Notes: generated by a model from the letters alone, not told the origin. A DNA stretch of 64,000 nt from Escherichia coli (GCF_016903815.1 NZ_CP069973.1), one strand, 5' to 3'. Positions 35,376-37,638 are shown, numbered from the stretch's first letter. Numbers and translations are program-made.

Positions 35376-36392
35376 TCTCGAGACGCATCCGCGGCTTATG
35401 CCGCCAGCACGCGGTTGCGTCCATCATTTTTCGCCCGATACAAAGCATCATCAACGCGTTTAAACAGTTCATCGATGCTTTCATTTCCTTCGTGATGCGC
35501 CACACCAATGCTGACGGTAAAGCGTGGTAAGCCCGAAATACCCACTTTTGCCACGCTTACGCGGATAGTTTCAGCCAGCGAAAGCGCGGTATCCAGTGGG
35601 GTTCTTGGTAGCAATAAGACAAACTCTTCGCCTCCCCAACGAAACACCAAATCGCCTTTGCGAGCGCAACTTTCGAGAGTGCGGGCGAGGGTGCATAACA
35701 CCTCATCACCTTTAGAATGCCCATAGAGATCGTTAATGTGTTTAAAACGATCGGTGTCGATGAGCAATAAGCTGTAATCCTGAGCGATGGCGAGGTGCTG
35801 CATTTGGCCTGGCTCGGTAATGTGATAAAACTGTCGCCGATTCAGTAATCCGGTCATCGCGTCATGGTGGGCAGCATGTTCCAGCTGCTCCTCCAGCCGT
35901 TTTTGCTCAGTAATATCATGCACAATACATAACATGAGCTTGTCGCCATAAATTTCAATCGGACCGGCATAGGTCTGCACATGACGAGTCGAACCATCCG
36001 CCAGTTTATGAACAAAATTCAAAGGCTTATGGCCACCGGGTAAATGCGAAATTTCATGCATGATAGGCATGACGCGTCGCCCGAGCATATTTATTTCCCA
36101 GGTATGTTTCTGGCACATCGTTTCATGGTTATAGCCATAGAAATTGAGCGCGGCGAGGTTAGCATCGACGATTTGGCCATCTCGTGAGGGGTCAATCAAC
36201 AACATTGGTGCAGAGTTAGTCAGAAAAAAGCGCGCATAAAAACCTTGTTTTTTGCGCTGATAATTTGCCGAGCGACTGGCTTTTAAACCCAGCGTTGCCG
36301 GTGCTTCGATACCTTCGAAAATAATCACCGGTTCTGCGGTAATGCTGCCAACTTACTGATTTAGTGTATGATGGTGATTTTAAGGTGCTTGC

Positions 36393-36668
36393 GTGGCTTC
36401 CATTTCCATCAGATGTCCTTCCTGCTCCGCTACTGAAGGCGTGGTGCGTAACGGCAAAAGCACTGCCGGACATCAGCGCTATCTCTGCTCTCATTGCCGT
36501 AAAACATGGCAACTACAGTTCACTTACACCGCCTCTCAGCCCGGTACGCACCAGAAAATCATTGATATGGCCATGAATGGCGTCGGATGTCGCGCCAGTG
36601 CACGCATTATGGGCGTTGGCCTCAACACGGTTTTACGTCACTTAAAAAACTCAGGCCGCAGTCGGTAA
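36393..36668 (+). CDS. insA: IS1 InsA
   Basis: 91 aa with a zinc-finger CPSCSATEG motif. Confidence 0.9.
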
Positions 36669-37090
36669 CCTCGCGCATACAACCGGGCAGTGATGTGATT
36701 GTCTGCGCTGAAATGGACGAACAGTGGGGCTACGTCGGTGCTAAATCACGTCAGCGCTGGCTGTTTTACGCGTATGACAGGATACGGAGGACGGTTGTGG
36801 CGCACGTCTTCGGTGAACGCACTCTGGCCACACTGGAGCGTCTTCTGAGCCTGCTGTCGGCCTTTGAGGTCGTGGTATGGATGACGGATGGCTGGCCGCT
36901 GTATGAATCACGCCTGAAGGGAAAGCTGCACGTTATCAGCAAGCGTTACACTCAGCGCATTGAGCGACATAATCTGAATCTGAGACAACATCTGGCAAGG
37001 CTGGGACGGAAGTCACTGTCGTTCTCAAAATCGGTGGAGCTGCATGACAAGGTCATCGGGCATTATCTGAACATAAAACACTATCAGTAA
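36587..37090 (+). CDS. insB: IS1 InsB (expressed as an InsAB' frameshift fusion)
   Basis: 167-aa ORF in the -1 frame relative to insA, with a DDE-containing catalytic region. Confidence 0.85.
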
Positions 37091-37638
37091 GTTGGAGTCA
37101 TTACCCGGTTCTGCTTCTGTCAGCTTTCGCAAAACAAGCCGACAGCTCAATGCTGTTTCCTCTTCATTGCGCTGAACGGTGAGGATTTCGATAATATCGT
37201 GTTGGTTTTGCAGATCGGAGAGGTATTTCGGCAGTTCTTTTTGTGAGGAGACGGAATAGGGACCGGTTCGTAGCTGACTAAACGTGAGGTCTTGCATCAA
37301 CAGTCGCGCCGCGCTGTTGGCATAAATTAACTGTTCCTCAAAGGGCGAAACGATCCAGACAGGACTGGTGAGTAAGTCCAGGGTATTGAAGTTGTGCGTA
37401 ATCATTGAGATCCCGTTATTTTTATCAATTTTTGTTGCTATCCGATCGCAAAAAAGCCACGTCATATGATCAGATAATTCTGATAATGATAGACGCTATT
37501 TAACACTTCACACGGTTTGTATATGGAAAAGCATTTTGCTTTTTGTATTCAATTTAGACAGAATTTTATTAATCATTTCAGGGTAATGGGGTGATGAGAT
37601 GTTGCGTAACAGGGCCAGAAGGCTAGACTACAAAATAA

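Follow-up and report, generated by a model that had tools for sequence, protein, structure and literature searches.

An IS1F insertion interrupts the diguanylate cyclase gene dgcM in a group of closely related Escherichia coli genomes

In Escherichia coli, csgD, the master regulator of curli and cellulose, is switched on by DgcM, which serves both as co-activator and as the local source of c-di-GMP. A laboratory knockout of ydaM (dgcM) in E. coli K-12 W3110 was reportedly described by Weber in 2006. Among natural lesions of the csgD/curli pathway, O157:H7 has a prophage inserted in mlrA. An IS1 insertion in csgB of O78:K80 is mentioned, as a citation, in PMC6029578, and Shigella flexneri 2457T carries a nonsense allele of dgcM itself (PMC11327459). 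The role of DgcM (YdaM) as the c-di-GMP source for MlrA-dependent csgD activation, which the initial annotation of the present locus took as its premise, is established in K-12 (PMC3715855). DgcM is an activator of MlrA-dependent csgD transcription, such that a K-12 ydaM mutant shows essentially no csgB expression and a ydaM yciR double mutant shows basal csgB expression (PMC3715855). The GGDEF domain is responsible for cyclase activity as well as for activating MlrA directly; the N-terminal domain, which is not needed for DGC activity in vitro, inhibits the contact between GGDEF and MlrA (PMC3715855).

Here, we examined a 64,000-bp stretch of E. coli DNA (GCF_016903815.1 NZ_CP069973.1; hereafter the window, from whose first letter all positions are counted) in which dgcM is interrupted by an insertion sequence. 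The element spans 36338-37105 on the plus strand and is exactly 768 bp long, which is the length of IS1. Its ends are the 23-nt inverted repeats GGTAATGCTGCCAACTTACTGAT and GGTAATGACTCCAACTTACTGAT (IRL at 36338-36360 on the plus strand, and IRR at 37083-37105 on the minus strand). These repeats are 87% complementary, and have the IS1-family form of imperfect terminal repeats of about 23 bp, beginning GGTRATG, around an element of about 768 bp. Across the 64-kb window the IS1 end consensus matched only these two ends, with 0 matches expected by chance. A promoter-like site identified by promoter scan upstream of insA (36345-36372, plus strand) overlaps IRL. The insA gene (36393-36668, plus strand) encodes 91 aa with a Zn-ribbon and an HTH domain (Pfam PF03811 and PF12759; NCBIfam transpos_IS1), and is followed by the overlapping and intact insB' frame, which corresponds to the DDE catalytic part (36587-37090, plus strand; Pfam PF03400, DDE_Tnp_IS1, 1.3e-74; NCBIfam transpos_IS1). 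As in other members of the family, the two frames are joined by a −1 slip on an A6C motif, here the programmed frameshift site TTAAAAAACTC (36642-36652, plus strand). Simulating this slip at TTAAAAAAC (36642) yielded an uninterrupted 232-aa InsAB' transposase, and RefSeq labels the IS1 transposase on the identical sequence as a “programmed frameshift” (WP_094106546.1). The complete 768-bp IS1 with insA and insB' that had been proposed is thus borne out by the terminal repeats, the Pfam matches, and the A6C slip, and since both frames and the slip site are intact, this IS1 copy is complete and potentially active.

Comparison with K-12 elements identified the inserted copy as the IS1F isoform, with 763 of 768 positions identical to K-12 IS1F (99.3%) and 700 of 768 to IS1A (91.1%). 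The element had first been described as diverged from the common K-12 IS1 copies, which holds for IS1A but not for IS1F, a copy that K-12 also carries. Copies 100% identical to the one in dgcM are widespread in E. coli genomes, and a copy at least 99% identical is present in 3927 records. The K-12 IS1F element (insA7/insB7, beside fecI) has the same 768-bp length, terminal repeats, insA/insB' layout, and A6C site. However, it adjoins fecI instead of sitting inside dgcM, its InsA differs from that of the dgcM copy by two substitutions, and its insB has an internal stop (pseudogene insB7), whereas the frames of the dgcM copy are intact and thus potentially functional.

The sequence flanking the element carries the hallmarks of transposition. 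An exact 9-mer, CGGTTCTGC, abuts both IS1 ends (left copy, 36329-36337; right copy, 37106-37114), for which the probability of a chance occurrence is about 4^-9, and target-site duplications of 8-9 bp directly abutting both ends are typical of the IS1 family. This is the flanking repeat reported in the initial annotation. Read on the minus strand, it is GCAGAACCG and encodes Ala98-Glu99-Pro100 of DgcM, which places the break between codons 100 and 101. Removing the IS1 and one copy of the repeat restores, as had been predicted, an exact full-length gene of 1233 nt, i.e., 410 codons and a stop, the same length as K-12 b1341. The reconstructed dgcM matches its K-12 counterpart at 1208 of 1233 nt and 405 of 410 residues (98.8%; 406 of 411 positions when the stop is counted), the substitutions being K34R, K80N, T98A, A313T, and S363G. 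The restored protein of 410 aa has the PAS and GGDEF domains, the GGEEF A-site, the RxxD I-site, and the motif RKGDLVFRWGGEEF of DgcM, and the locus lies in the orthologous position, with the gene order smrA - dgcM (opposite strand) - ynaN - zntB, as in K-12 b1340-b1342.

In the window itself, the dgcM frame is broken after codon 100 and meets a stop 26 codons into IS1. The 5' fragment (37106-37405, minus strand) comprises codons 1-100 below an unchanged native promoter and 5'UTR region, and the 3' fragment (35396-36337, minus strand) comprises the duplicated codons 98-100 followed by codons 101-410 and the stop. From the reading frame, the predicted product of the 5' fragment is a 126-aa chimera (37025-37405, minus strand) in which DgcM residues 1-100 would be followed by a 26-residue tail encoded by the right end of IS1. 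The read-through frame initially delimited as 37025-37465 is indeed a chimaera of dgcM and IS1, although it had been extended mechanically to an upstream ATG, the real product starting at 37405. On the identical sequence, RefSeq annotates the 3' piece as “dgcM, incomplete, missing N-terminus” and the 5' piece as a pseudogene, “hypothetical protein, missing C-terminus”. Profile searches on the reconstructed DgcM placed a PAS fold at residues 130-244 and GGDEF at 253-406 (Pfam), or a PAS S-box at 130-249 and GGDEF at 249-408 (TIGRFAM), while residues 1-128 matched no Pfam family even at E<=10, and a single-sequence AlphaFold model of residues 1-100 was unreliable (pLDDT 58, pTM 0.27). Since the only detectable PAS lies at residues 130-249 and the break follows codon 100, the PAS domain is not separated from GGDEF, contrary to the original view of a split between the PAS region and the GGDEF domain. 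As judged from these profile matches, the insertion parts a 100-residue N-terminal segment from an intact PAS+GGDEF unit.

This architecture makes the fate of the 3' fragment central to the interpretation of the allele. The PAS+GGDEF part is left without its promoter, ribosome-binding site, or start codon, so that no functional DgcM would be made, and we infer that the C-terminal DgcM protein is absent. Alternatively, a truncated PAS+GGDEF protein starting at V101 or M142 might be produced through read-through or IS1-derived transcription, and would have kept, or even gained, cyclase activity and MlrA activation. IS1 insertions are able to create hybrid promoters, but our promoter scan revealed no sigma-70-like site pointing outward from the IS1 left end toward the 3' fragment; it returned 4 sites in total against 3.3 expected by chance, and within IS1 the minus strand has a single such site (36998-36969), which matches at 9 of 12 positions, a score reached at chance frequency. 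No Shine-Dalgarno-like sequence precedes either the GTG at 36328 or the next ATG (M142), and IS1 is classically strongly polar. Were such a fragment nonetheless made, it would be active: both the PAS and the GGDEF domain are preserved in full in the dgcM 3' fragment, along with the RKGD I-site and the GGEEF A-site, and the N-terminal domain of YdaM is both dispensable for DGC activity and inhibitory, as it masks the contact between GGDEF and MlrA-CTD (PMC3715855). Interrupted DGC genes of Shigella, dgcM among them, can also give rise to separately translated C-terminal polypeptides, but in S. flexneri the signal of a c-di-GMP reporter was decreased, not increased, by the dgcM pseudogene (PMC11327459). 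Taken together, we consider an active truncated DgcM to be very unlikely, and retain loss of functional DgcM as the preferred reading.

An intact dgcM at this locus in the source strain had been named at the outset as the sign of an assembly artefact, a concern that is legitimate for IS1, which is multicopy and whose repeats can be mis-assembled. The distribution of the allele settles this question. The entire 64,000-bp window is 100% identical to a region of E. coli 7/2 (NZ_CP023820.1:1500823-1564822), isolated from human faeces in Sweden, and the left junction (300-bp query, full cover) was recovered from 93 of 5426 complete E. coli genomes. The whole 2010-bp locus was 100% identical in all 60 genomes among the matches listed, i.e., in at least 60, and the listed carriers came from humans, dogs, cattle, pork, wild birds, and water across several continents. 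The dgcM IS1 of strain 2022N21-074 has itself later been invaded by an IS3-family element, which is now nested inside it. Conversely, other E. coli carry the reconstructed empty site without interruption and with 100% identity, and dgcM is unbroken at the insertion point in 5282 of the 5426 genomes. The two states of the locus should be distinguishable by the k-mers ATAATCACCGGTTCTGCGGTAATGCTGCCAAC (carrier junction) and ATCACCGGTTCTGCTTCTGTCAGC (empty site). The junction shared by 93 genomes, the identity with 7/2, the nested IS3 derivative, and the empty sites elsewhere together rule out that the structure arose in assembly or in the laboratory: the insertion is real and inherited. It is present in this strain, as first reported, but is not a lesion peculiar to it, being apparently clone-wide and carried by 93 complete genomes.

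Searching with the whole locus counted 124 genomes, compared to the 93 with the junction. A composite query made of K-12 dgcM and IS1A listed about 25 extra genomes, none of which has the junction studied here, and most of which (about 20) have an IS1 near smrA. In TOK-001, an IS1B copy lies in the dgcM-zntB intergenic region, upstream of dgcM, and in the pig isolates NT1W25 and NT1N25, IS1A has independently entered dgcM within the stretch that encodes GGDEF. These IS1 insertions in and near dgcM could be taken to indicate a recurrent hot spot rather than one inherited event. However, they lie at different positions and involve different isoforms, whereas the insertion studied here shows the same junction, orientation, duplication, and flanks in 93 independent complete assemblies, and its carriers coincide with one closely related clone. 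The perfect 9-bp duplication and the exact reconstruction of the gene are furthermore signatures of real transposition. An artefactual, laboratory-acquired, or hot-spot origin is thus effectively refuted. NT1W25/NT1N25 and TOK-001 also carry IS1-family insertions affecting dgcM, but these differ in isoform, position, and lineage, and each is confined to one or two genomes, as opposed to what appears to be a whole clone for the IS1F insertion.

Comparison of the flanking sequences suggests that a single ancestral event underlies this distribution. When genomes were ranked by similarity to a 25-kb left flank query and the ranking was sampled at even steps, rank 1 was 100% identical, and rank ~93 was 99.4% identical (GMF054). 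GMF054, the nearest insertion-free genome sampled, has an intact dgcM and is 0.6% divergent. At SNP 35542, the window carries an allele unlike that of all 12 insertion-free genomes fetched, and an exact 99-mer with this allele was found in 92 genomes, of which the only member sampled, Ec-U4-19 (Burkina Faso), near the end of the set, has the insertion. From these counts and ranks, the 93-genome and 92-genome sets appear to be equivalent, in which case practically every close relative in the 5426-genome collection would be a carrier, and this fits a single ancestral insertion. The flanking sequences thus point to one insertion in an ancestor, essentially fixed in the clone. Two other potential markers of relatedness were rejected. 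A 99-mer spanning SNPs 35678 and 35692 matched 246 genomes and is thus not specific to the clone. Identical empty-site haplotypes (400 and 514 bp) were considered as a sign of close relatives, but the exact 514-bp haplotype occurs in 13 insertion-free genomes, 5 of which were checked and are 1.3-1.4% divergent in their flanks. This divergence implies that the local haplotype is shared through recombination or ancestry, and that it does not identify a lineage.

Published typing suggests a name for this clone. WCHEC96200 and WCHEC4533 were analyzed as ST405 genomes (PMC9037040), the isolates in a paper naming WCHEC96200 belong to ST405 and phylogroup D (PMC5762679), and YDC107 is ST964, O102:H6, phylogroup D (PMC6035167). 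One carrier record is also named O102:H6. With the sequence type taken from papers for three carriers, the carrier set as a whole probably corresponds to the ST405 complex. An assignment of the carriers to ST410 was also considered and set aside: no papers joining ST410 with dgcM or ydaM were found, and strain papers give ST405/ST964. The scenario most consistent with these data is that IS1F transposed once into dgcM, between codons 100 and 101, duplicating 9 bp, in an ancestor of the ST405/ST964 O102:H6 phylogroup D clone, and that the insertion would then have been passed on vertically until essentially fixed. The window would thus be a piece of the chromosome of one such strain.

The expected consequence of this event depends on the genetic partner of dgcM. 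In strain 7/2, the antagonist gene pdeR (yciR), located 36 kb upstream of the window, is annotated as intact, with a length of 1986 nt. Losing DgcM while PdeR remains intact would be expected to lead to a “hyper-repressed” state in which the RpoS/MlrA route induces csgD, curli, and cellulose only weakly, i.e., to a strongly reduced induction of csgD, curli, and the cellulose matrix through the RpoS-dependent low-temperature pathway. By analogy with K-12, reduced csgD and curli activation is thus the most likely outcome, although control of csgD in clinical isolates can depart from that in K-12, and the effect may be weaker there. In a literature search, we found no paper mentioning this dgcM IS1 allele, nor any usable curli data on individual ST405 strains.

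The insertion could instead be silent, if control of csgD and curli were already broken or rewired elsewhere (e.g., in rpoS, mlrA, csgD, or bcs) or if csgD were DgcM-independent in this background, in which case the allele would represent neutral decay spread by hitch-hiking. ST405 does include sub-lineages with loss-of-function of cellulose genes (PMC10881479), and in a panel of UPEC that included three ST405 isolates, curli of the clinical isolates was higher at 37 °C than at 27 °C, unlike in K-12 (PMC11960073). IS1 is also found at 6-22 places per carrier genome among the matches listed, which makes random fixation plausible. On the other hand, DgcM would be bypassed if its epistatic partner pdeR were lost, but pdeR is intact, and the fact that 5282 of 5426 genomes have no interruption of dgcM here suggests that the gene is normally maintained. 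Hence we regard a silent insertion as unlikely, albeit less so than an active truncated protein. The explanation as a whole, namely a single IS1F insertion in the ancestor of the clone that caused the loss of DgcM and is expected to reduce the induction of csgD, curli, and cellulose, we hold with high confidence.

As a kind of feature, this event is not new: RefSeq already annotates the identical sequence as a pseudogene, and the allele is an ordinary IS1 insertional pseudogene of a known type. What the present analysis adds is that it appears to be fixed throughout a multidrug-resistant lineage of global distribution, for which it could serve as a marker, that the PAS+GGDEF part is intact but orphaned, and that with pdeR intact a clear and testable phenotype can be predicted. 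A dgcM knockout fixed across the sequenced members of a high-risk multidrug-resistant clone would predict a clone-wide change in the regulation of the biofilm matrix, and the insertion would offer a simple PCR or k-mer marker for this clone. Its value is therefore epidemiological and as a source of a phenotype hypothesis, rather than in any new kind of biology. A more ambitious reading is that ST405 emerged in part through an adaptive loss or remodelling of DgcM, with a stronger variant in which the promoterless PAS-GGDEF segment is expressed as a deregulated MlrA activator. We view this as distinctly unlikely, but if true, it would parallel the convergent attenuation of the cellulose/curli matrix reported in other extraintestinal pathogenic lineages.

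The closest counterpart of the IS1F allele is the K-12 W3110 ydaM knockout (Lindenberg 2013, PMC3715855), which likewise has no full-length DgcM and has PdeR present, and in which csgB/curli expression is abolished. The allele described here differs in being natural, in lying in a clinical phylogroup D background, and in having a phenotype that is predicted by analogy. It also leaves a 126-aa N-terminal chimera, as deduced from the reading frame, and an intact, promoterless PAS-GGDEF segment, unlike the W3110 knockout. More broadly, the csgB insertion of O78:K80, the dgcM allele of 2457T, and the mlrA prophage of O157:H7 likewise represent lineage-specific pseudogenisation in the csgD/curli pathway of pathogenic E. 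coli and Shigella. These three cases differ from the present one in gene, position, or mechanism, as the lesion here is an IS1F copy after codon 100 of dgcM that appears fixed in the ST405 complex.

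Beyond the IS1F-type copy in the window, the dgcM locus has received other IS1 elements. Two pig isolates, NT1W25 (segment L007, NZ_CP075477.1, 1501-3510) among them, carry an IS1A in the portion of dgcM that codes for the GGDEF domain, and an IS1B occupies the dgcM promoter/5'UTR region of the Tokyo isolate TOK-001 (segment L008, NZ_AP018395.1, 2733-3700). These are independent events in unrelated strains. IS1 also adjoins smrA in about 20 more genomes. The dgcM-borne IS1 has itself been a target: in the Taiwanese blood isolate 2022N21-074 (segment L009, NZ_CM125676.1, 2498-4531) and in a derivative of it, an IS3-family element is nested within the IS1, which shows that this copy has since been inactivated in the 2022N21-074 sub-lineage. 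A further insertion sits just upstream of the window in strain 7/2, where puuE and pspF are separated by an IS3-like IS1397 whose transposase carries a frameshift annotation (segment L021, NZ_CP023820.1, 40196-41543); pdeR is intact in the same stretch.

Gene content around dgcM also varies. The abgT-abgB-abgA-abgR operon is intact in the window (25737-30779), and most of the equivalent region is deleted, with remnants only, in several lineages sharing the same local dgcM haplotype (segments L010-L013 and L016, e.g., NZ_CP019903.1). The mcaS gene (31000-31095, minus strand; Rfam, 114.5 bits) encodes the sRNA McaS, which regulates csgD, flhD, and pgaA. Between mcaS and smrA lies a 3.5-kb island (31166-34617), extra relative to K-12, which encodes a regulator of the AraC family, an adaptor of the HlyD family, and a DHA2 MFS efflux permease. 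Some E. coli lineages have this island and others lack it. The permease forms an open frame of 504 amino acids in the window (33103-34617, plus strand), and RefSeq labels 33103-34558 as "frameshifted" in strain 7/2. The same call recurs in several unrelated lineages (MDR_56, 104, CFSAN061763, and GMF054, the nearest insertion-free genome), and may reflect either a frameshift common to many lineages or an annotation that takes a longer reference as its standard.

On the other side of dgcM, a Rac-like prophage (41610-64000) is integrated at a site adjoining ttcA, where several of the insertion-free comparison strains lack any prophage. Its genes include intR, xisR, ralR, recET, kilR, sieB, lysis genes, and trkG, and it also carries the RalA antitoxin sRNA alongside ralR (43166-43344) and sok of a hok/sok locus (55280-55450). 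The FnrS sRNA (38739-38856, plus strand) is located downstream of zntB, the same arrangement as in K-12.
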